Below, piece after piece: positions 124 to 30,021 of a stretch of DNA of 57,545 nt. The stretch is from a virus (Duplodnaviria > Caudoviricetes): IMG/VR virus record IMGVR_UViG_3300032285_005159, positions 1-57,545 of that record. The stretch is one strand, 5' to 3'. Numbering within the stretch: the stretch's first letter is position 1; each line of letters opens with the position of its first letter. Under the pieces are notes generated by a model, which had not been told where the DNA came from, did not search any database, and worked only from the letters and a program-made list of their open reading frames with translations. Made by a program: the position numbers and the translations under genes.

Positions 124-3100
124 ACGGCTTGGGTACAGGTCCAGAGGGTCAGCCTCGTAGTCGTACAAACTGTCTCCTGCCACCTTAATTTGGTAGCGGA
201 ACGGTCCAATAATGTACTCGCGCACGTAACTGCTATAACCAAAGTACGTTCTTGGTTGGTAGATCTTTTTGTAGTCACGCTTGCGATCCTTTTCAGCACC
301 AATGCCGCCAGTGCCGTGCATGGTTGGGTCAGTTGTTTTAAGGTCCGAGTCGAACGACCAATGCGTAAGCTGAACTTCTTTGCCTCGGAACAACGCTGGC
401 GCAGCGGACTTGCTATAGCGCATATCAATTTCTCCAGTAAGTTCTCCGGCCAAGTTAACGCGCGGCTGCTGGTAACGCGGCTTTGAGTCGTACGTAGGGT
501 TCTTCATAAACACCCGCGAACCAACCATAATGGCATCGCTAAACGTAAGAACTGGGAGCTTGGTACGTACGTCAACGAACTCACTTGATCGTGCTGGGTT
601 GTACGCAATTTCTGCCCATACCGTTGGATCGTTAATGTCGGACGGCAATCGGTCAATCTTAACGTTCTCGCCCTGCACAGTTGCCAGCGGGAACTTGCCA
701 CCGCCCTGCGCAATAGTCATTGGGTTACCCTTTTCAACTCGAGTCATTACTCGGCCGTTCCTAACTCTGGCAATATTAGTGTATCCAATTGTTTTGCCAA
801 CATTGTTTAGCGGATGCGCCGTAATTGCGTACGTTACTTCACCGTGCTTAAGAGATTCATTGTATGTCGGAATATCAATTCGCCAGTCAATTACCTGACC
901 TTCGGGAATACCCAAGTCCTCCATTACTTTGCCAACCTTTTTTTCCTCGTCAGCAGATAAAATCTTACCGTCGCGGCGAGCAACAATGTATCGCTTAACT
1001 TGCTCAATGGGTGGGATTGCACGCGCACCCTTAACTACCCAAGGATCTAGTACTTCAACCAAGTCAGCAAACGTTGCGTTATCAATTTGACCTTCGGCCA
1101 AACGAATGGCAGCAACGGCCAGCTCGCCAGAACGTTTGTTCTTGGTTGCGCTAGCAAAAGCCTTGCTTTCTTGCTCGGTAGTCGGGGCTAAAGCTGCGCG
1201 GCTAAACTGAATCGTTGGGGCGTTGTCGTCCACGGTTAAAGAATCACGGGTCCAAGCAACAGACTCCGCAATGGTTCCGTCCGTGTTAAGAATTACAAGG
1301 CCGTCGTAGCCTTGCTTTTCACCCAAGCTCTTAAAGTGTTTTCCAATGTTGCCGTACTGCTCGAACAAGTGCTCGGCTTTAGCTTCTGCCTTTTCTCCGG
1401 ACAACCCTAACGCTTCGAATACCAATGCTGGACCCCTTGCTTTGTTTGACACTTTAACAACCAACGGCTTCTTAAGCAACAAGTCAAAGGTAGTCACTTC
1501 GGCTTGGCCCATTTCTTTTCTAGCTGCTACTGCGTAGTCTTTGGCTCGCGTAACGTCTGGGGTAGTGTAGTACCCGTAACCGTACACGCCTTCCGAGCTA
1601 GCCTTCATTGGTGTGCGGCCGTCGAAAGTTCCGCCGTGGTATCCAGTAACGTAAAGCGGTTGTCCGTTCGGTGGGTTAACTGATACCTTGGGTGTTCTAA
1701 GCCTGTTAAGGATACCTTCTTCGGTTACCACAGCGCGGCTACGGCGAATGTCTGCTGTACCTTGGTTGAACCGCTCGCTCAGCGGGATCACATTGCCATT
1801 CTCATCGCGGGTTACGGGGTCGGCGGATTTGATTTGGCTTGGGTCGAAGACTACCGTAGATACAGACGCGTCCCGCTCTCCCTCAACTGAAGGCTCGTCT
1901 ATTACGGCAGAATCATAACCCAAATCGCGAAGTGTTTGGACGAATACCTTGCCGTCTTCTTCATCAAAAAGTGCCCAAGTTTCAGTAGCGCGTAGCCACC
2001 TGTCTGAAATGCCAGCATCTACAAGCCTCACATGAACGCTGTTGTCTAGCTTGGTTAGGTCTGCCGTATTTGACGATTTAAGATAATACTTTCCGACATT
2101 CTTGCCAAAAGATTGAGCAATTTCTGGATCATTAGAAAAGTAGAATCCCTGCCTATCAACATTTTCAACACTGAATAGAATGTAAACCTTCCCGCCCCTA
2201 TTCTCAAATACTGTAAACCCTTTTTTATCAGTGCCATGATATTTTGGATTTGCGGAGTCATACCCCGCAGCCTTAGCTGCCTCGTCCACCATGCGCTGTG
2301 CCGTTGCTGTATCCCCAGCGTCTACTGCTGCAAGGTAATCAGCATCCATTTTCGTAGCAGCGTCACGATTATCTACTGGCTTGCGAACTGTAAAACCACC
2401 TTCTGGATTTGAAGTTTTAGTCCAGCCTTGCGCTTCTAGTTGCTTAATCCAGTTCTTAACTGCAACAATATATCCTTTTGGTGCTTGAACTTTATTTAAA
2501 GTTATAGCCGAAATATGTTTCTTTAACTCGCTCGGTTGGATATATGCAATAAGCTCTTCACCGCCGCCACTTGCAGCAACAAAAGCTGATCCGGGTTTTG
2601 TTGCTCTAGGGACTTGTGTACTAAAGTTATTATCAAACTCTAAAAGAACCCCAGCATTTTTACGCTGGCTCAATGCTAAATCTTTGTTAGTAGCAAAGTA
2701 AGTTTCTGGTGGTCCAAACGGTAAATCGCTATAAGTCTGTGGCAACAACATCATAAGACCATCAATGTCTGTTTGATGGTACAGTGTGGTCACATTTGCA
2801 CGACTGCGTTGAATTGTAGGAGCGGCTTGCTCCAACGGTACTTCTCCGGCTTCGCCCTTGCGCAGCTCAACTTCGGCCCAGCTTGGGAACCCAAGACTCA
2901 GGGCTAAGTCTTCGGTATTTGCGTAGGCTTGGTTAATGTCCTTGCCTGTGGCCAGTTGGAACACAGCAGCGCGTACGTCTTCAATTGTAAAGTTCTTGTC
3001 CTGTTCGTACTGGGCCCACACCGCGCGAACCGCGTCCACGTTCTTCTTGTTAGACTTCCACTTTGCGGGGAACAATAACCTTACGGCTTCCCAAGTAATG

Positions 3101-6100
3101 GACTGGATTTCGCGCGGCAACAAGCCAAAGTTCTGGGCAGCAGCGCGGTAAGCCTCGGCGTTGGCCGCATACATTCCGTTAACACCCAGAATTGAGTTGT
3201 TAGTAACGTTACTTGAACCAAAGTTCTGGCTAACTTCAAAGCTATTTCCGCTTAGGGCTTGCCAGTACAACGCAGCAACAGCGTGCGTATCCATTGTTAC
3301 GTGGCCGTCCTCGTTGTTAGGATCCACAATGTTATTGTAGAAGCTGCGCACCTTGTGCATATTGCCGAGCTCTTTGCTAACTACCTTGAGCTTGGTATTT
3401 TTGTCCGAGCTCATAATGCGGATTGCTTTCTGAACGGTGCTGTAGCTGCCCCAGCCAATCTTAATTTCTTTACCGCTAGTTTCGCTGCGCGACGCTTCTT
3501 GCGTGTTGGTTCCGTCCGGCGCGTACTTCATAAACGCTGGGCTATCGTTTACTTCCGAGTACATCCGAATAAACCGTGCTTGGTCTTCAATTGCCAAGTC
3601 CTTAAGTGCCCGGCCTTCCACGTTTTTTAGAACTTCGCGTGCCTTGGCTCGGCCAGCTTCCGCGTTTGCGTTGGACCATCCGGTAAACATTGGGTTACCT
3701 TGCTCGTCCAGAACGTGTTCGCCGTTGCTATCGTACACGGCCTTGACCTTACCCTTTTCGTAAATTGGCTTAGTTCCGTCTGTGGCCTCGGTAGTAATTT
3801 GTGGTTCGCCTCCACGCTTAAGCCACTGCGCAGTCATAGCTGGACTCCACACAAGTCCATTTGGATTACCCAAAATTACTTGTTCGTGCCAGATCTTCAT
3901 GGTGCGCTCGGCCAGCGCAATGTTCATAAACCAATCCTTCTGTGGGCTAAACACGGCTAGCACACCGCTGGCTTGCTCAATGTCTTGTGCGTACTGTGCG
4001 CCAAACTCATTTGCAATTTTGTTAGCACCATCGTACCAGAGCTTGGCTACGTTTCGCAAGCTCTTGGGGAACAAGTTAATTAACGCTTCCAAGTTGGACT
4101 GCGTGTTTTGAATTACAACGTCGTAAATCTGCGGCGCAAGTTTAGCAATTGGATGGTTTGGATCCGATGCAAACTCAGCTAGCTTTTTAGTCATTGCGGA
4201 CTTTTGCTCGGTACCCAACGCCTTTAGCTTAGTTGATTTTGCTAAGCACTTTTCAAGAGCTGCTTGGTTCTTTGCAAAGTCTTTACCGGCTTGTCCGGTA
4301 AGCCCTCCGTTTTCCAATAGCAAAGCGTCTTCGAACTGAGCGTCGGTTGCCTTTACCTTATCCACGGTAAGCAAGTCCTTTAAGACTTTCTTGTACCGTT
4401 TAATTTGATCGGCGTTAACACGAATTTCACCTGAAGTCTTTTCGTGCTTAGTCCGCAACTTGCGAACCATTGCAGCTAGCTCGGGAAACTCACGCGCAAC
4501 AATTGGGTACTCAGTTAGGTACAGTGCATTGGTGCGATAAGCCTTTGGATCCCGCGCCATTACGTCCAAGCTAATTAAAGACATTGGGTCAATGCCGGAC
4601 TCGGTAGCACTTTTGCCTGTTGGGTTACGGGTACCTAAAGCTTGGCCGGGCTTAAGATCAGCCGCGTTAAAACCGCTGTATGCTTTCGAGAAAAACTTTG
4701 TGGGCTCAACTGGGCGCAAACGCTCAGCAATTGCTACGTCAGTATCGGAAAGAGTATCTGAGAAGTTCTCAGCTTCTTGGGGGATATCATCTCCGTTGCG
4801 TTGCAAGTAACGGTACAAGTCACCCAAGCGGTTTTGCGCTACAGCCAACCTTTCGTTTTCTCCGGTATTGCGCTTTCCAATTTCAGCAAAAGCTGCGGCA
4901 ACAAAGTTTTTTGATTGATCTCCAAGCGCAAGCAAGTCTTGTAGGTCAGAAGCGGTAAGTTCATTATTCGCAGCACCTTCAATAACTTTAGCTGGAGTAA
5001 GGCCAACGTCTTCTAGTGCAACGTGCGTATCGTACCCAACCTTTTGAATGGCCAGTTCGTGCGCCACGGCTACGGCAAGGTCCCGCTCGACCAAGCTGGT
5101 TTGCTCGTCGAATCCGTAATTGCCGTACACTTCGTTAACTAAGCCTTCGTTTACTAGCAACGTGTTACCGTCCAACACAAACGGCTTGGCAGTATCCTTT
5201 GAAAGTACGGTTGCAAATTCCTTTTGGTTTTGAACGTTACGGACAATTTGGCTCTCTGAACCCGTGGCCGTAATAACGTCCTTTGAAGGACGCAAGCCAG
5301 AGTCTAGTTTGTAGTCCGCGTACATAACGCGAACCGTAATAATTTTACCTTCGGTTGTACGTACATTGGTAAAGTAATTGTCGTCTGAAGCTTCATCTGC
5401 TGGAATGTCTAGCTCTTCCCCATCTCTGGGCTGGTACATACCATCTTGGTAGAACAAACCTTTATCGGTTGCCATGCTTTCTTGGCCAAACTCGTTGGCG
5501 AAATCCACTGCATCTTGATCCGTGAATCCTTCAACTAGAAAACTATTTTCACCGTTGCCGTAACGACCAACAACCAAGTCGGCCACGTAGCCACGATCAG
5601 CCAGCCACTGCTTAGCCCGTTCGTTAAACGCTGCGTTAGCTTCTTCGGTTTGTACGGTAACGTCTGGATTCTCGGCCGTAAATGCACCAAACTTTCCGGT
5701 TTTAATAAGTGCGCGGAGTTGGTCTTCCGAGAAAATACCATCCTGCAACGAATCGGTTTGGTGGTTAATCCACTTAAACGAAGTGCGCGGGTGCGGGTTA
5801 GGCACTCCGTACATTGGGCCAAAACCATCTTCGCGTGCAACTGCTGCGCGGCTAGCCAAAATTTGCTGGACCGAACGTGCTGGCAAACCATTGCCTTCGG
5901 CCACTGCCTTTTTAAGATCCAACATTGCTTCGGCCAATGCACGGCTTTCTGGATCTGCCAAACGCTTGCCGCTAAACCAGCTACCAATAATGTCTACGAA
6001 CTTTTGGAACAAGCTACGTTCACCCTTGCCGTTAAGTTCGTCGAGTTGGTTTCGGAAAGTCTGCGATGCAAAGTAGTGCGCAACGAATTCGTTAACCGCG

Positions 6101-25140: not shown

Positions 25141-27837
25141 ATGATTACTTACGCTGTTGACTTTGAGTCGTACTACGACAAAGACTGTTCTATTTCTGTT
25201 TATGGGCCTCGAGGCTACTTTTCTCACCCAAAATTTGACGCTTACATGGTTTCCGTGGTTGGCGACAACGGCTACGAATTCTGTGGCCACCCCAAAGATT
25301 TTAACTGGACCTTACTTTCTGGAGAACTTGTGCTTAGCCACAACGCTTCTTTCGATGAAGGCTTGTACCTTTACGGCGTGGAGCAAGGCTGGTGGCCTTC
25401 CGTACCTTACTCAGAATGGCATTGCACCGCAGACTTAGCCGCGTTTTTAGGTAAGCCCCGCGCTTTGAAAAATGCTGTTAAGGACGTGTTTGGCGTTGAG
25501 CTAAGCAAAGAAACTCGGGACAACATGAAGGGCTTGGACTGGGCCGCAATGACGCCCGAGTTTAAAGCAGAAGTGCTAGAGTACGCTTTGGATGATAGCC
25601 GTTGGTGCTTAAAGCTTTGGCAAGAACTGCAAAGCCAGTGGCCAGAGTACGAGCGTTACTACAGCGCACACACGCGTAAGATCTGCCGTCGGGGGATTCC
25701 TGTGGACGAAAAGCTTATTGACCATAACGCAGGTATTCTACGCGTTGCCCTTTTTGAAGCCCAGCAAGCTATTCCTTGGCGCGACTCCGGCGCGTTGCTT
25801 AGCCGAACCGAAGCCAACAAGGCTTGCCGTGCGGCCGGAATTACCCCGCCAAAGAGTTGGGCAATGGGAGACGAGGAGTGCGAGGCTTGGCTTGACGCCA
25901 ACGCTGAAACGTTTCCTTGGGTTTTTGCAGTGCGTGGATACCGCCGAATTAACGCGCTTCTTAAAAAGGTTGAAGCGTTTGAAAAAGGTACGAGTAATGA
26001 AAGGTACTACGGCGGCCTAATGTACTGTGGGGCCCACACCAAACGTTTTAGCGGAAGCGGCGGCAACTTAAACCTGCAAAACTTGCCACGCAAAGAAATG
26101 TTTGGAGTTGACCTACGCGGTCAAATTAAGGCTCCAGAAGGATCCAGCTTTGTTGTTGTTGACCTTAGCCAGATCGAGGTACGTACCCTTTGCTGGTTAG
26201 CCAAGGACTGGGATACCCTAAACGAAATTCGTAACACGGACGATATGTACGAGGCCTTCGCAATTCGGTTCGGCCTTTGGAGCAAGGACCAAGGATCAAT
26301 GAAAGAGCTAAACCCAAACCTGCGCCAAACCGTAAAGGGCATGGTTTTGGGTTGCGGGTACGGTGCCTCGGCCAAGAAGTACGCAATGATTATGAAGTGC
26401 AGCTTGGAAGAAGCCACAAAAAGTGTAAGGCTTTACCAAACCAAAATGAACAAGGTTGTGGAGCTATGGCGCAAGTTTGAACGCGAAATTAAAATGTCGT
26501 CCAAGTCCGGTGAGTACCGCGTTGAGCTACCCAGCGGGAACGCCATGCACTACAAAAGCGTTAGCAAAACCGCAGATGCATTGGTTTGCACAATGGTGCG
26601 AAATGGACGGCCTGTTCTAGTACGTCCTTGGCACGGAATGCTTACCGAGAACTGCTTAATTGGTGAAACTAATATTTTATCAAAACAGCGCGGATGGATT
26701 CAAATTCAAGACGTACGTTTAGATGATAAACTTTGGGACGGTTTAGACTTTGTTGAACATAAAGGTCTAATCAACTCAGGTATTCAAGAAGTTATTCAGT
26801 GCCACGGTGTTACGTGTACCCCAGAACACCAATTCCTACTTGAAGATAATTGGACTTCTGCCGAAAAAGCTAGACATCTAAAATTAAGTTTGGTACGTTT
26901 ACCGCATGAAGTTAACAAACAAAGCAAAGAATTATGCCGGAATAAAGTTTGGGACCTGCTTAGTGGTAAGACCTATTGGGAAACACATACGAAATATTAT
27001 TTGGGAGCTACAATGCGATTGTGGCAAAAAAGTGAATCGTTTATCCGGAGAACTTGTAACTGGGAAGTTTTGCTCAAAAACTTGTCCACTGCTTTCTTCC
27101 AAAATTTCGGAACAAAATTCTACGCACAAAAAAAGCAAACACAAACTTTTTTCAGTGTGGCGTTCAATGAACGACCGTTGTCGGCTAACAACACATCAAG
27201 CTTGGAAGAACTATGGGGGTCGTGGAATTACAGTATGCCAAGAATGGCAAGATTCATTTCAGGCATTTTGGGATCAAATGTACCCATCATGGTCGGAGGG
27301 CCTTTGCTTAGACCGCATAGACAACAACAAGGGCTACTCTTTCGAAAACTGTCGATGGGCAACTTATCAGGAAAATATGCGGAACACTCGACACTCACGA
27401 ATTCCCGGTTGGGTCTTGGATCAAAGCGACAAAAATGGAATTGCACGATCAACGCTTTTATTCAGAATAAATGCTGGAGTGTCTTTCGAAATAGCAAGCA
27501 CCCTGAAACCGAGTCATTCAAACAGGTATTCGACATCAGAGACTGCGGACCTAGAAATAGATTTGTCGTGCGCGGAAGCCAAGGCCAAATTTTAATAGCA
27601 CATAATTGTAGCCAGAGCTTGGCCAGAGATATTTTTTGCTACCACCTACGCAAGATCGAGGAGGCAGGACACAAAATCATTTTGCACGTACACGACGAAG
27701 TGGTAATTGAGTGCGCGGACGCGGACGCACAAAGCACTTTAGCCAACGTGGTTGCGCTTATGCGTACGCCGCCGCCTTGGATCCCAGACATTCCTTTGGA
27801 CGCAGAAGGCCACGTTGTTAAAATTTACACCAAATAA
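25141..27837 (+). CDS. polA: Family A DNA polymerase with 3'-5' exonuclease, interrupted by an intein (~580 aa after splicing)
   Basis: Exo VDFES, HNASFD, YALDD; pol NLQNLPR, DLSQIEVR, RQTVKGMVLGCGYG, TEN[intein]CSQSLARD, HVHDEV. Confidence 0.93.
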   Translation: MITYAVDFESYYDKDCSISVYGPRGYFSHPKFDAYMVSVVGDNGYEFCGHPKDFNWTLLSGELVLSHNASFDEGLYLYGVEQGWWPSVPYSEWHCTADLAAFLGKPRALKNAVKDVFGVELSKETRDNMKGLDWAAMTPEFKAEVLEYALDDSRWCLKLWQELQSQWPEYERYYSAHTRKICRRGIPVDEKLIDHNAGILRVALFEAQQAIPWRDSGALLSRTEANKACRAAGITPPKSWAMGDEECEAWLDANAETFPWVFAVRGYRRINALLKKVEAFEKGTSNERYYGGLMYCGAHTKRFSGSGGNLNLQNLPRKEMFGVDLRGQIKAPEGSSFVVVDLSQIEVRTLCWLAKDWDTLNEIRNTDDMYEAFAIRFGLWSKDQGSMKELNPNLRQTVKGMVLGCGYGASAKKYAMIMKCSLEEATKSVRLYQTKMNKVVELWRKFEREIKMSSKSGEYRVELPSGNAMHYKSVSKTADALVCTMVRNGRPVLVRPWHGMLTENCLIGETNILSKQRGWIQIQDVRLDDKLWDGLDFVEHKGLINSGIQEVIQCHGVTCTPEHQFLLEDNWTSAEKARHLKLSLVRLPHEVNKQSKELCRNKVWDLLSGKTYWETHTKYYLGATMRLWQKSESFIRRTCNWEVLLKNLSTAFFQNFGTKFYAQKKQTQTFFSVAFNERPLSANNTSSLEELWGSWNYSMPRMARFISGILGSNVPIMVGGPLLRPHRQQQGLLFRKLSMGNLSGKYAEHSTLTNSRLGLGSKRQKWNCTINAFIQNKCWSVFRNSKHPETESFKQVFDIRDCGPRNRFVVRGSQGQILIAHNCSQSLARDIFCYHLRKIEEAGHKIILHVHDEVVIECADADAQSTLANVVALMRTPPPWIPDIPLDAEGHVVKIYTK
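26653..27606 (+). mobile_element. Intein (318 aa) in PolA
   Basis: Starts CLIGETNIL (block A), has TCTPEHQF (block B, TxxH), ends VFDIRDCGPRNRFVV...IAHN followed by +1 Cys. Removal restores the LTEN-CSQSLARD polymerase motif. Confidence 0.9.
26906..27595 (+). CDS. HNH homing endonuclease in the +1 frame inside the intein
   Basis: W.LQCDCG, WRSMNDRC, YGGRGITVCQEW, LDRIDNNKGYSFENCRWAT..EN.RN. The offset from the polA start is 1765 nt (+1 frame). Confidence 0.85.
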   Translation: MKLTNKAKNYAGIKFGTCLVVRPIGKHIRNIIWELQCDCGKKVNRLSGELVTGKFCSKTCPLLSSKISEQNSTHKKSKHKLFSVWRSMNDRCRLTTHQAWKNYGGRGITVCQEWQDSFQAFWDQMYPSWSEGLCLDRIDNNKGYSFENCRWATYQENMRNTRHSRIPGWVLDQSDKNGIARSTLLFRINAGVSFEIASTLKPSHSNRYSTSETADLEIDLSCAEAKAKF

Positions 27838-27882
27838 TTGCTTGACCAAGAATCAAGCACCAAGTAACAAGAATCAAGTTCC

Positions 27883-30021
27883 ATGAAATATTACTCAATT
27901 CCAAACCTCAGAGCCAACGCCGCCGCACCTTTTGATCCAACAACGTGGGCAGGTAATTACCCAGACCTAAAAAGCAAGTCCGCGTTTCGGGCTTGGTGCG
28001 CTAGCGTAGATACCAAGCACGCATTTATTTCAGGTGTAGAAGGTGTAAACCCAAACGAGCGTGTTGGGACCCAGAACCCACCGTGCAAAGTACACGCGTT
28101 CGTTGTGGATTACGACGTGCCAGTTGACTGGACCACGCTTAAGGATACAATAGACAAGAAGCGTGGTACTGGTCCAATGCCCACGTGGGCTATTAAAACT
28201 TGGTCCGATCACTTGCGGTTGGTGTGGGAGCTGGAAGAGCCTTTAATGGTTACCGAAGATACGGCCGAGCTAGTTCTTGAGCAGCTTAGCAAAATCGTTA
28301 ATGCGCCAAAGCTTTACGCTGGATATGATTCGGCTAGTACCAAACCAAGCCAGTACTACGAGGTTGGCACAAACTGGAAAAACTTTGGCGGTCGTATTTC
28401 TACTGGAGACGGCTTAACCGCGTTGTTTAAGGTAGGATCGGGTAAAAAAGTAGTTACGGACGTATCGGTTCCGTTGGACGTAGTGGCCGCTGAAGTTGCG
28501 GAGCGTTGGCCGAACCGTTGGAAAGGCGAGTTTGTAGAAGGCTCGCGCGGACCATTATTCTGGATCGAGGACGGCGTTGAACGCGAAGGCGCAATGGTTA
28601 AAGCTGACGGCATGATCTGCTATAGCGACCGGGCCGGAGCACCTTTTGTTACTTGGCGTGAGATCTTGGGCAACGGCTTTGTTCAGAAGTATGAAACCAA
28701 AAGGCTAGTAGAAGGCGTTAGCGATATTTGGTACGACGGCCGGGACTTCTGGATTACTGGTCCTTTGGGCCCAATCCGTAACATCCGAGACAACGTAATT
28801 CTGCATCTTAAAATGGCTGGTTTTAGCCAAGAAAAAAAGAAGGGTCAGAAAGTAACTGAAATCGAAAGCGCGTTGCACCACATTATTACGCACAACCGCG
28901 TGGACGGTGCGGCTCCTTTTGTGTTCCGTGAAGAACGTTTAATCGTTGAACCAGACGGCCGACGCTTGGTTAACACTAGCCGCTGCAAGGCCTTGGTTCC
29001 CGCCATAACTGGTGAGCCTTCTGACTGGCCATGGCTGCATAGCTTCTTCCAAAGGTTCTTTGACCCAATTGCAGACGAGCTCGGTTGTACCCCTTTGGAC
29101 TTCTGGTACGCATGGCTTAGCCGGGCTTACCAAGCGTCGTACTACAAGCGTCAGCTTAGCGGCCACGCCGTTATTATTGCTGGACCTCCCCGGCGCGGTA
29201 AGACCTTGCTTAGCCAGTTTATTGTTGGCAGCTTGCTTGGAGGCCACGCCGACGCAAGCGAGTACTTAAGCGCAAAGACTACGTTTAACAAAGCCCTAAG
29301 CGAGGTTCCAGTTTGGACCGTGGACGACTCTGTTTCGGCAACGAACTTTGCGGACCACCGTAAGTTTGTGGAAATGCTTAAGAAGCTTGTTGCTAACCCG
29401 CGCATTCAAGTTGAGGCAAAGTACGCGGACCGCACTGATATTAACTGGTACGGCCGCGCCATTATTACCTTGAACGAGGATGCCAACAGCTTAAGCATGA
29501 TTCCAACCTTAGAAAGCTCTAACCGCGATAAGCTTATGGCTTTCCGCATTGCACAGAACTCGTGCCGCGAGTTCTTGCCAAACGAACAGCAGGAGTCTTT
29601 AATCCGGCGCGAGCTTCCATTCTTTGCGCGTTGGCTATTGGACTACGAACCGAACCAAGCTGTTTTAGGTAGCGCACGTTATGGCGTGCGGAGCTACTTC
29701 CACCCAATGGTTGAGAATTCTGCACGGGATTCCAGTACAAGACAGGGATCTACGGAGCTCCTAGACATTTTCCTTAAGTACTACTCGGACGCTAATCCGA
29801 ACCATGAAGTGTGGACTGGTACCACAACCCAGCTAATTGTAGAGATTAACCGCATTGACGAGCTTCGAGGCTTTCCTGTGGTGCGCGAGCCAATGCGCTT
29901 GCAGCGGGACCTTAGCAGTGCCGAGGAGTACTCTGCAAGTAACGCTTCGGCCCGGAAGATTAGTAGTATGTCAACTGGAAGCGGCCGGATCTGGACAATC
30001 CAAATTAACAAGGATGCATGA
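27883..30021 (+). CDS. Primase-helicase (AEP-like N-terminus, SF3-like NTPase C-terminus)
   Basis: FVVDYD...HLRLVW; IIAGPPRRGKT Walker A, WTVDD Walker B, IITLN. Confidence 0.8.
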   Translation: MKYYSIPNLRANAAAPFDPTTWAGNYPDLKSKSAFRAWCASVDTKHAFISGVEGVNPNERVGTQNPPCKVHAFVVDYDVPVDWTTLKDTIDKKRGTGPMPTWAIKTWSDHLRLVWELEEPLMVTEDTAELVLEQLSKIVNAPKLYAGYDSASTKPSQYYEVGTNWKNFGGRISTGDGLTALFKVGSGKKVVTDVSVPLDVVAAEVAERWPNRWKGEFVEGSRGPLFWIEDGVEREGAMVKADGMICYSDRAGAPFVTWREILGNGFVQKYETKRLVEGVSDIWYDGRDFWITGPLGPIRNIRDNVILHLKMAGFSQEKKKGQKVTEIESALHHIITHNRVDGAAPFVFREERLIVEPDGRRLVNTSRCKALVPAITGEPSDWPWLHSFFQRFFDPIADELGCTPLDFWYAWLSRAYQASYYKRQLSGHAVIIAGPPRRGKTLLSQFIVGSLLGGHADASEYLSAKTTFNKALSEVPVWTVDDSVSATNFADHRKFVEMLKKLVANPRIQVEAKYADRTDINWYGRAIITLNEDANSLSMIPTLESSNRDKLMAFRIAQNSCREFLPNEQQESLIRRELPFFARWLLDYEPNQAVLGSARYGVRSYFHPMVENSARDSSTRQGSTELLDIFLKYYSDANPNHEVWTGTTTQLIVEINRIDELRGFPVVREPMRLQRDLSSAEEYSASNASARKISSMSTGSGRIWTIQINKDA

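Follow-up and report, generated by a model that had tools for sequence, protein, structure and literature searches.

The polA gene of a phage in the class Caudoviricetes very probably holds a mini-intein and an independently translated homing-endonuclease gene that share one stretch of DNA. The window (57,545 nucleotides; IMG/VR record IMGVR_UViG_3300032285_005159) is a complete phage genome of 57.5 kb, and its polA product is a family A DNA polymerase (Pfam DNA_pol_A, E 9.3e-25; phrog_17 DNA polymerase, E 6.6e-63). Inteins are usually taught as single-frame elements that carry both splicing and nuclease domains. In the arrangement proposed here, the polymerase frame would encode a mini-intein, with an N-terminal domain of about 85 amino acids and a C-terminal domain of about 30 linked by some 200 amino acids of disordered filler, and the +1 frame would be a separate nuclease gene (Table 1). 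The middle of the stretch is under purifying selection in the nuclease frame and its two ends are under it in the intein frame, and every stop in the polymerase frame is purged.

Table 1 Features of the polA locus, with positions in the window
Feature	Position	Strand	Remarks
polA precursor ORF (family A DNA polymerase)	25141..27837	+	898 aa with the intein; stop codon included
N-extein	25141..26652	+	504 aa; ends ...WHGMLTEN; junction from intein-less L028
Intein, class-1 type, polymerase frame	26653..27606	+	318 aa; Cys1...TPEH...HN / Cys+1
Intein N-terminal splicing domain (blocks A and B)	26653..26905	+	residues ~1-85; pLDDT 81-96 (residues 1-80)
Intein filler, polymerase frame	26918..27501	+	residues ~89-283; predicted disordered; no family; 0 stops
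Intein C-terminal splicing domain	27514..27606	+	residues ~288-318; VFDIRDCGPRNRFVV...LIAHN; pLDDT 91-95
C-extein	27607..27834	+	76 aa; starts CSQSLARD; polymerase motif C (HVHDEVV) inside; L028 junction
HNH-family endonuclease ORF, +1 frame	26906..27595	+	229 aa; ATG start; TAA stop within intein block G
HNH ORF C-terminal tail, non-conserved	27521..27595	+	residues ~206-229; overlaps intein blocks F-G; pLDDT <50

An earlier note on this DNA had described a 318-amino-acid intein in PolA, and the region translates as quoted there, reading CLIGET...TCTPEH...IAHN and then Cys at the +1 position. Alignment with related inteins reveals that Cys1 is invariant in all 22 sequences, as are T56 and H59 of the block B TxxH motif (here TPEH) and N318 at the C-terminal end (IAHN/C), where H317 is conserved in at least 90%. 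The conserved columns are C1, G14, D29, T56, H59 and W67 in the N-terminal domain and D294, G299, F304, H317 and N318 in the C-terminal domain. An intein profile (A2) matches the solved inteins NEQ068 (E 2.6e-6) and PI-MtuI (E 1.2e-5). Likewise, the predicted structure superimposes on the gp41-1 intein over 108 residues (Z 14.9, rmsd 1.9) and resembles the Mtu RecA intein (Z 14.6), with Z values of at least 8 for 30 chains. In this model, a HINT fold is formed jointly by the N- and C-terminal parts of the intein.

Model confidence exceeds a pLDDT of 90 at both ends of the intein and falls below 50 at residues 89-94, 105-200 and 202-283. The filler, read in the polymerase frame, belongs to no Pfam (E<=1) or NCBIfam family; the whole intein-frame product finds no Pfam match at E<=1, and its sole PHROG match covers residues 15-84 in the N-terminal splicing part. 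These searches and the prediction of disorder bear out the earlier statement that the in-frame middle shows no recognisable endonuclease motifs.

The exact insertion site is provided by a 580-amino-acid polymerase (L028) that is 91% identical to that of the window, has no insert and reads LTEN/CSQSLARD across the junction (...LTENCSQSLARD...). Of the 16 relatives of the polymerase, L027 alone contains the intein, which is therefore present in 2 of the 17 members of the clade when the window polymerase is included. Splicing of the intein would yield a 580-amino-acid polymerase, and we infer that it occurs because the motifs are intact and because selection keeps the frame open in a polymerase that looks essential. 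It is extremely improbable that the insert is instead removed as RNA, being a group I or group II intron that carries an HNH gene, or retained in the protein as a tolerated insertion. The ShiLan report (PMC11855218) describes phage methylases into which an out-of-frame HNH is inserted, with the host frame open and a splicing domain lacking, which lends this option some plausibility. However, positions 26400-27900 have no Rfam match at E<=1, Cys1, TPEH, HN and Cys+1 are all present together with a HINT fold at Z 14.9, and 318 amino acids within a conserved polymerase motif would probably be hard to tolerate.

The separate 229-amino-acid ORF that the earlier note had placed in the +1 frame from ATG 26906 does lie in that frame, as (26906-25141) mod 3 = 1, and it contains all of the HNH motifs quoted (CDCG, YGGRGITVC and DRIDNNKGYSFENCRWAT). 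In profile searches of the two frames, the middle of the intein matches no endonuclease, and the +1 ORF matches the PHROG HNH families (phrog_374 'HNH endonuclease', E 2.7e-48; phrog_3377, E 8.3e-42). A family HMM covers positions 26915-27535 of the ORF (E 5.6e-86), and the HNH models of Pfam and NCBIfam have no match to it at E<=1.

The nuclease would begin with a beta domain that bears a CxC motif, followed by a helical region, a PacI/I-HmuI-like beta-beta-alpha-metal core and a C-terminal helix-turn-helix. In the structural model (mean pLDDT 75.5), strands at residues 134-137 and 149-152 precede a helix at residues 154-159. The core (residues 79-164) gives a weak match to PacI (3m7k_A; Z 5.8, rmsd 2.8, 71 residues, 22% identity), the HNH profile gives a weak match to I-HmuI across the D-x...N...N motif (E 0.039), and a Foldseek search with the model returned nothing at E<=0.001.

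At the position aligned to the I-HmuI His, the usual general base of the HNH motif, the family has Arg137, which is invariant in all 23 aligned members. The metal-binding pair is present as D136 (D, E or N across the family) and the invariant N160, opposite the Asp and the final Asn, respectively, in the I-HmuI alignment. Tyr144 is invariant in the family as well, and PacI is reported to use a Tyr as general base (PMC4081073). By analogy, Y144 could be a PacI-like substitute general base, and nuclease activity would need such a Tyr. Both Arg137 and Tyr144 are also invariant in a free-standing family member (L007), which argues that they are family traits rather than signs of decay.

The polymerase and HNH frames are both free of stops across their overlap (GC 0.42), where the third frame has 15-16 stops. 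To assess this pattern, we generated 1,000 synonymous shuffles that preserve the HNH protein and its codon usage. The polymerase frame has 0 stops against a mean of 15.2 expected, and none of the 1,000 shuffles is stop-free, so the doubly open frame is not due to chance. All 24 other nested loci likewise lack stops in the polymerase frame, against 3.5-14.5 expected and with a fraction of 0-0.021 of shuffles stop-free. L007, which is free-standing, serves as a comparison, with 16 stops against 19.8 expected. Polymerase-frame stops in the +1 phase take the form T/AA, T/AG or T/GA, such that a stop can always be removed through the synonymous third base of the preceding HNH codon.

Frame-specific selection is also evident from nucleotide substitutions. 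Between the window and L027, differences at polymerase codon positions 1/2/3 number 73/32/249 in the N-extein and 16/3/28 in the intein N-terminal domain, then 40/17/10 in the HNH core, where the excess falls on HNH-frame third positions, and 1/2/4 in blocks F-G. At the protein level, the HNH region is 88.3% identical when read in the +1 frame, compared with 71.7% when read in that of the polymerase, whereas positions 27521-27606 are 89.7% identical in the polymerase frame and 78.6% in the +1 frame. Two further pairs give the same picture in their N-side, HNH and C-side segments (L008/L016: 10/14/34, 97/32/33 and 6/4/11; L014/L024: 23/14/44, 92/42/37 and 4/2/5). The phase of substitution thus follows the polymerase frame, then the HNH frame, then the polymerase frame again, with HNH third positions favoured in 3/3 usable pairs. 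This locus is dual coding, and its polymerase/intein frame is held open by selection. The filler is a mere out-of-frame reading of the HNH gene from which stops are kept out.

These results uphold what the earlier note had stated about the overlap, namely that both frames are open throughout it and that the intein frame has been kept open, the latter through shuffles and frame-specific substitutions alike. It had also pointed out that the HNH ORF runs into the C-terminal splicing blocks. This is real in the window, though the tail concerned (Table 1) is poorly predicted. In most relatives the HNH stop lies 62-68 nt upstream of the intein end, and in L001-L003 it lies at the aligned ...TS-stop position. 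The substitutions show that selection has reverted to the intein frame between the HNH stops of most relatives and the intein end, and the overlap of the HNH tail with the splicing blocks looks incidental.

Two compensating indels, introduced by sequencing or assembly, could in principle mask an ordinary intein with an in-frame HNH domain, a possibility raised at the outset. Contigs from runs X2, X4 and X10, the latter two from other studies, span the intein (26653-27606) without an indel or gap, and their indels are limited to the pairs 26307/26310 and 27924/27927. Moreover, the same relation between frames recurs in independently assembled loci (24 of 25 and 62 of 80, as described below), including the isolates APSE-1, SFCi1 and GB2A, and substitutions switch phase as genuine out-of-frame coding would cause them to. 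An artefact of this kind is accordingly a negligible prospect.

The arrangement is conserved across many phages. Among 25 HNH relatives, 24 are nested in the +1 frame within inteins of polymerase ORFs (22 viral contigs, APSE-1, Shewanella SFCi1 and Caulobacter GB2A). Starting from the intein instead, 80 relatives have the HNH at +1 in 62 cases, at +2 in one, in frame in none and absent in 17, and the intein frame is stop-free in all 80. One polymerase lineage contains both mini-intein alleles of 135 aa and alleles of 315 aa that bear the HNH. Distances between HNH proteins correlate weakly with those between splicing domains (rho 0.27, a value reached by 20 of 2,000 permutations), which does not firmly establish co-inheritance as one unit.

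This distribution bears on whether the +1 ORF might be a decaying relic, no longer expressed or active, within an intein that is now only vertically inherited. The occurrence of HNH-less mini-intein alleles would fit such decay, as would the Arg in place of the catalytic His and the lack of a Pfam HNH match. However, the ORF is intact in the 62 intein relatives noted above and in 24/24 nested loci, at 36-89% identity and with 35 invariant columns, and its substitutions cluster at HNH third positions in all usable pairs. The retention of Arg137 and Tyr144 in L007 and the presence of the intein in just 2/17 of the polymerase clade also speak against a relic, which we regard as improbable.

Translation of the nuclease would most likely start internally on the polA mRNA, at the start codon of the nuclease ORF. 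In 25/25 loci, an ATG or GTG start lies no more than 24 codons after a stop in the HNH frame (in the window, the stop is 6 codons before the ATG), and the loci keep a start codon at the corresponding place in the alignment. A Shine-Dalgarno (SD)-like purine run precedes the start in 20 of the 25 loci against a background of 0.16, a count for which start codons were picked by hand and the related loci do not represent 25 independent events. This run is made of intein codons, either Glu/Gly-Gly before the conserved Trp or the His-Glu-Val of block B. The conserved start just past a stop and the SD-like run are the reasons that internal initiation is favoured over frameshifting. Upstream of the HNH start in the window, promoter-like sites do not exceed chance, and folding of the start region is no weaker than that of shuffles (z 0.8). 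Of the sequencing runs labelled as RNA, X9 is flagged as probably DNA, and the others contain a fraction of 0.06 or less of the sequence words.

An alternative route would be programmed +1 ribosomal frameshifting, which would produce the HNH domain as a fusion of N-extein, IntN and HNH. The window ATG at 26906 has no SD-like motif upstream, as this route would allow. In addition, a database protein of 895 aa (P0012) joins a polymerase N-extein, IntN (profile E 2.7e-30, residues 592-663) and HNH in a single frame and ends at the HNH stop without IntC. Against this, a frameshift site would have to fit between the HNH-frame stop and the start, an interval of 6 codons in the window and at most 24 in the 25 loci, and the conserved start codon and the recurrent SD-like run also count against it. 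Furthermore, the phage starts nearly all of its own genes without such a signal, which is found for 1 of 43 window ORFs of at least 120 aa. We therefore consider frameshifting unlikely, slightly less so than decay of the ORF.

Translated in this way from its own start, the nuclease would most likely serve in homing: by cutting or nicking polA alleles that lack the intein, it would allow the intein to spread. The occurrence of the intein in 2 of 17 clade members and its reported differential presence among APSE phages lend homing indirect support. Given the coexistence of mini- and HNH-bearing alleles in one lineage, along with free-standing relatives such as L007, a free-standing HNH gene may have invaded a mini-intein.

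A more tentative proposal, which we hold to be possible but doubtful, is that the intein and the +1 HNH gene are old partners that adapted to each other and move as a single unit, rather than a chance pile-up, with the translation signals of the nuclease written in intein codons. Conserved intein codons would supply the SD, with the start a few codons on, and the filler would be kept open purely by the choice among synonymous codons of the nuclease. Either the unit itself or the habit of nesting would have colonised three or more different sites in family A polymerases as well as one or more other genes, in one instance in the +2 frame. It may have originated in a phage of high GC content, in which chance alone leaves 1-2% of synonymous versions without stops. 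If this proposal is true, nesting could be a general, overlooked route from free-standing to intein nuclease, and many database 'mini-inteins with long linkers' may hide nucleases.

This family shows on a broad scale that an essential-looking polymerase gene can carry a nuclease gene written over an intein linker that is kept free of stops but has no meaning of its own, both here and across the related loci, isolate phages of Hamiltonella, Shewanella and Caulobacter included. Three layers of selection coincide on one stretch: the protein in the +1 frame, the exclusion of stops from frame 0 and the splicing domains at the ends. This suggests a route by which free-standing homing endonucleases become joined with mini-inteins. 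Gene callers miss or shorten such nested ORFs, as with APSE-1 P46, and the inteins are mislabelled as mini or decaying. The Caulobacter phages offer a culturable system in which to follow intein homing as well as internal initiation within a gene that is itself being translated, and the PacI-like Arg/Tyr variant of the active site could yield new site-specific nucleases or nickases.

Out-of-frame intein nucleases on the same strand have already been reported in preprints of 2025-2026, for other nuclease families. Gosselin et al. (2025) describe inteins whose splicing blocks enclose a nuclease ORF on the same strand but in a different frame, with an open host frame and an in-frame middle without recognisable fold, and propose that a free-standing nuclease gene invaded an intein; the locus studied here shares the nesting, the foldless middle and the open host frame. 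Their nuclease is endonuclease VII-like (1E7D match, residues 1-67), in 'frame 3' of actinophage genes, and the only polymerase named in their text is DNA polymerase III alpha. In contrast, and as far as that main-text description sets the two apart, we find a PacI/I-HmuI-like HNH with a helix-turn-helix, in the +1 frame of family A polymerases of non-actinobacterial phages. Assignment to the endonuclease VII-like, frame-3 type was rejected, given the +1 frame and a weak match of the window HNH protein (P0002) to the endonuclease VII PHROG (E 2.5e-4, against 2.7e-48 for HNH). Phillips, DeSimone and Gogarten (bioRxiv 10.64898/2026.09.14.751524) describe a cyanobacterial dnaX intein with an out-of-frame LAGLIDADG endonuclease. 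As presented there, it is similarly widespread, its overlapping-frame nuclease is under purifying selection, mini and full alleles coexist, and secondary invasion of a mini-intein is likewise proposed. It differs in its LAGLIDADG nuclease, its cellular host gene and its '+2 ORF', whereas ours is an HNH in the +1 frame of a phage polymerase.

Other systems share part of the arrangement. In ShiLan (2025, PMC11855218), an HNH is likewise concealed in a second frame, the host frame lacks stops and internal initiation is proposed, but in that account there is no splicing domain and the insert is thought to be retained in the protein, whereas a complete HINT domain flanks the HNH here. In fractured genes, a free-standing endonuclease gene lies between the halves of a split intein (Dassa et al. 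2009, PMC2677866), and the host gene, as described, comprises two ORFs joined by trans-splicing. The window polA is a single uninterrupted ORF of 898 aa, and a fractured gene with a split intein was rejected for it; a PolA example of the fractured-gene arrangement is seen in another locus (L043). The likeness to PacI and I-HmuI concerns the core of the model and the motif region, through weak matches and with Arg at the His of the HNH motif.

A member of the same HNH-intein family is already on record. In phage APSE-1 (NC_000935), P45 (DNA polymerase) and P46 overlap as annotated, with the intein at the same site and the HNH in the +1 frame at 36% identity to that of the window. The record annotates the HNH core only (locus 2732-3154), and homology begins at GTG 2504. 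The intein is reported to be differentially present among APSE phages (PMC7313666). In the literature searched, outside which the 1999 APSE-1 paper lies, P46 was not found to be called an out-of-frame intein nuclease. The polA intein with its HNH gene is a new, large family of an architecture that has already been reported.

The window is a viral record complete at 57,545 bp, bounded by direct terminal repeats and with an overall GC content of 0.48. Its polA gene encodes a family A DNA polymerase interrupted by an intein, and the middle of this intein is overprinted in the +1 frame by an ORF for an HNH protein (see table). A polymerase from a relative (locus L028) whose N-extein is 91% identical lacks the intein, is 580 aa long and reads ...RPWHGMLTEN/CSQSLARD... 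across the insertion site, which is exactly the spliced product predicted for the window polA.

Coding features at polA in the window, and differences from its close relative L027 by polymerase codon position
Feature	Positions	Strand	Description	Differences at codon positions 1/2/3
polA	25141..27837	+	898 aa; Pfam DNA_pol_A E 9.3e-25, phrog_17 E 6.6e-63	
Intein	26653-27606 (polA residues 505-822)	+	CLIGET...TCTPEH...LIAHN, then Cys	
HNH ORF	26906 (ATG)-27595	+	229 aa, +1 frame relative to polA	
N-extein				73/32/249
Intein N-terminal domain				16/3/28
HNH overlap	26906-27520			40/17/10
Last 86 nt of intein	27521-27606			1/2/4

In a shuffle test that permutes synonymous codons within the HNH ORF, and thus retains both the protein and its codon usage, the polymerase frame acquires a mean of 15.2 stops and none of 1,000 shuffles is stop-free, compared with 0 stops observed; the third frame across the same ORF has 16 stops. 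Contigs from three other public sequencing runs (X2, X4 and X10, the latter two from other studies) cover the entire intein at roughly 92–95% identity, with no insertion or deletion within 26653-27606. The stop-free shuffle fraction, the gap-free contigs and the intein-less L028 junction establish that both the boundaries of the intein and its frame arrangement are real. An earlier note, made from the sequence alone, had described a 318-aa intein in polA carrying a 229-aa +1-frame HNH ORF and had proposed a check for hidden indels; its anatomy is correct in every detail, and its reading of the locus as a dual-coding intein is essentially right. The only indels in these contigs are one-base deletion and insertion pairs, 3 nt apart, that compensate each other: one at 26307/26310 in the N-extein, seen in X4 and X10, and one at 27924/27927 in the next gene, seen in X10 only. 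Each restores the frame locally and reflects natural variation.

The ordered parts of the intein-frame product are predicted to form a splicing domain. A structural model built from an alignment of 22 sequences has pLDDT values of 81–96 at residues 1–80 and 91–95 at residues ~288–318, with values below 50 at residues 89–94, 105–200 and 202–283. These confidently modelled ends can be superposed on solved mini-inteins, including gp41-1 (Z 14.9, r.m.s.d. 1.9 over 108 residues), Mtu RecA (Z 14.6) and NpuDnaB (Z 14.2), with thirty chains at Z ≥ 8, and the sequence profile also retrieves the solved inteins NEQ068 (E 2.6e-6) and PI-MtuI (E 1.2e-5). The intein-frame translation matches no Pfam family at E ≤ 1 and its sole PHROG match lies on residues 15–84, which agrees with the earlier claim that its middle holds no recognizable endonuclease. 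The sole match of the intein frame in the Pfam and NCBIfam search, to IF-2 (E 0.008), was set aside as meaningless. A blastn search of 26400-27850 against the phage collection matched nothing, and 26400-27900 contains no Rfam family, and hence no recognizable intron.

The HNH ORF strongly matches two families of phage HNH endonucleases, phrog_374 (E 2.7e-48) and phrog_3377 (E 8.3e-42), and is not detected by Pfam and NCBIfam models, including those for HNH. In its structural model (23 sequences; mean pLDDT 75.5, below 50 at residues 206–229), a beta domain lies at the N terminus and helices at the C terminus, with a helical region and a beta-beta-alpha unit (strands 134–137 and 149–152, helix 154–159) in between. 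A Foldseek search of the whole model against the PDB gives nothing at E ≤ 0.001, with kinases as the top rows. When the core (residues 79–164) is aligned with VIA-align, the HNH restriction enzyme PacI is recovered (Z 5.8, 71 residues, 22% identity); residues 3–56 resemble SH3/Tudor-like folds at Z 5–7, a range common for this tool. An alignment of the family profile with the HNH motif of I-HmuI (E 0.039) places Arg137, invariant in 23 of 23 sequences, at the position of the usual general-base His. Tyr144, Asn148, Asn160 and several Cys and His residues are invariant too. Because the general base of PacI is a Tyr (PMC4081073) and Tyr144 is invariant, it is plausible by analogy that the HNH protein works by a PacI-like mechanism.

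Substitutions reveal which of the two frames is conserved. Differences between the window and L027, the only close relative with the intein, were sorted by polymerase codon position (see table), and within the HNH overlap the changes fall at HNH-frame third positions. At the amino-acid level, the +1 frame is 88.3% identical across this overlap and the polymerase frame 71.7%, and this order is reversed in the last 86 nt (78.6% and 89.7%, respectively). The same phase pattern is observed for two further pairs with gap-free alignments, L008/L016 (10/14/34, then 97/32/33, then 6/4/11) and L014/L024 (23/14/44, then 92/42/37, then 4/2/5); pairs L001/L003, L010/L019 and L006/L023 were left out as their ungapped alignments collapse to identities of 0.16–0.3. 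Because the substitution phase switches to the HNH frame, the middle of the intein frame is no more than the HNH gene read out of frame, under a constraint against stops. In this phase, a polymerase-frame stop takes the form T/AA, T/AG or T/GA across two HNH codons. The genetic code therefore always allows such stops to be avoided, by a preceding HNH codon that does not end in T.

The placement of start codons bears on how the nuclease is made. All 25 loci examined have an HNH-frame stop just upstream, followed within 24 codons by an ATG or GTG, which in most loci lies 9 codons ahead of a conserved Gly. Such starts are preceded by GAAGG- or GGAGG-like runs that are the intein's own Glu/Gly-Gly codons before a conserved Trp; in other loci the start lies at −13 or −14 codons, after a GAGGT drawn from the block B His-Glu-Val codons. 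A Shine–Dalgarno (SD)-like motif occurs 5–13 nt upstream of the HNH start in 20 of 25 loci (background 0.16) and is absent from the window, L004, L005, L023 and L024. In the window as a whole, such a motif precedes just 1 of the 43 ORFs that reach 120 aa, which suggests that the host of this phage initiates translation without one. Promoter-like sites on the + strand number 3, compared with 2.7 expected by chance, and none lies upstream of 26906. The fold of the start region is not weaker than that of shuffles (z 0.8). Contigs of run X9, which is listed as RNA and flagged 'probably DNA', cover only pieces of the window, and runs X18–X20 contain ≤0.06 of its words. Given the start codons and SD-like runs, and no promoter-like site upstream, the best-supported route by which the HNH protein would be translated is internal initiation on polA mRNA. 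Less probably, it could be made as a frameshift fusion from the intein frame. A database protein (P0012, 895 aa) joins the polymerase N-extein, the N-terminal splicing part and the HNH sequence in a single frame; it terminates at the HNH stop and lacks the C-terminal splicing part. Either a split intein or a frameshifted copy of the family would account for P0012.

The nested arrangement is widespread. A tblastn search of 50,697 phage records with the HNH ORF matched 1,099, and the best matches fall within genes annotated as DNA polymerase in Shewanella phage SFCi1, APSE-1 to APSE-7 and Caulobacter phages GB2A, RW, RLK and KcrB. The HNH match occupies the +1 frame of the polymerase coding sequence in each of three records inspected, and the APSE-1 annotation itself has overlapping P45 (polymerase) and P46 (HNH) genes. 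Among relatives on viral contigs, 21 of 22 are likewise nested, in ORFs of 885–1261 aa or ones cut by the contig end; the one free-standing relative (L007) has 11 stops across the match, and 16 over the whole ORF, in that frame. Not one of the 24 nested relatives has a polymerase-frame stop, compared with 3.5–14.5 expected (stop-free shuffle fraction 0–0.021).

The intein alignment, used as a query, retrieved 362 relatives. The best 80 of these 362, at least 5 of which are contigs already seen, are all stop-free in the intein frame; HNH lies at +1 in 62, at +2 in 1 (a partial match) and in frame in none, and 17 lack it. Among the loci without HNH are mini-inteins of 135 aa that occupy the same polymerase site, and both forms occur within one polymerase lineage (135 aa in L068, L088 and L111 versus 315 aa in L083, L102 and L108), wherein the HNH segment takes the place of a short linker that is flanked by ...GWK.AG and SGE.G..KEVYDIL. 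The L102/L088 alignment could reflect either invasion of a mini-intein by HNH or deletion of HNH from a full intein.

Within the window's clade (the window plus 16 polymerase relatives), the intein is confined to the window and L027, and several polymerase relatives have Ala at the +1 position, which is Cys in the window. Differential loss of the intein is described for APSE phages in the available text of one study (PMC7313666). Mean pairwise identity is 0.51 for HNH and 0.48 for the splicing domain, both above the 0.34 of the flanking extein. Distances for HNH and the splicing domain are weakly correlated in a Mantel-type test, and because rho is only 0.27 we do not claim co-phylogeny. Homing would be the parsimonious function for the HNH protein.

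Related elements occupy other sites. A second intein of 287 aa in L016 (1548-2408, in polymerase ORF 168-3950) sits at motif B (ELA/CLGPRTRV...VIVHN/CGFGG) and holds a related HNH ORF in the +2 frame (family HMM 1796-2290, E 5.6e-13), with 0 polymerase-frame stops against 2.1 expected (3.5% of shuffles stop-free). Another, of 259 aa in L018 (1482-2258, in polymerase ORF 444-3908), sits at motif A (SQIE/CVAEGQ...VIVSN/CRLL) with a shorter HNH-like +1 ORF (open 1549-2205; HMM match 1765-2019, E 4e-13) and 0 stops against 10.9 expected (0 of 2,000 shuffles stop-free). In another host protein (..GHP./C...SHN/S[MA][GA]HG.), a related intein has a +1 HNH in L113 (1501-2427, 309 aa, E 1.9e-40) and is HNH-less, at 145–197 aa, in L072, L082 and L095. 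At the polymerase site used in the window, L051 (1501-2823) has an intein of 441 aa that lacks a match to the HNH family and may carry a different nuclease. Extra HNH-family copies downstream of the polymerase in L021 (5628-6140 and 4548-4745, E 3e-47 and 7e-10) are apparently free-standing. In L043 (1463-4604), a family A polymerase is divided by a split intein into two ORFs with a GIY-YIG-like free-standing ORF (2692-3561) between the halves, an arrangement of the 'fractured gene' type (Dassa 2009).

Inteins with in-frame HNH or antisense LAGLIDADG nucleases are older knowledge, and same-strand out-of-frame nucleases were first reported in 2025, in actinobacteriophage inteins, according to the accessible text of a preprint (10.1101/2025.01.02.630785). 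Those nucleases are described there as endonuclease VII-like and in 'frame 3', whereas the window has HNH at +1. A cyanobacterial dnaX intein reported in 2026 has an out-of-frame nuclease that, in the portion of the preprint available (10.64898/2026.09.14.751524), is LAGLIDADG, rather than HNH in a phage polA. The ShiLan domain, as portrayed in the available part of its description (PMC11855218), is an out-of-frame HNH without any intein, whereas the window HNH sits within one. A full-text literature search, with preprint supplements, InBase and the 1999 APSE-1 paper outside its scope, returned no published description of the polA-intein HNH family. Since out-of-frame intein nucleases are already in print as preprints, we class this family with that recently described kind, to which it is a large, well-supported addition. 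Nuclease family, reading phase, host gene and the range of hosts set it apart from those described earlier, and what is new is its breadth, its three-layer selection signature, its translation signals built from intein codons and its recurrence at other polymerase sites.
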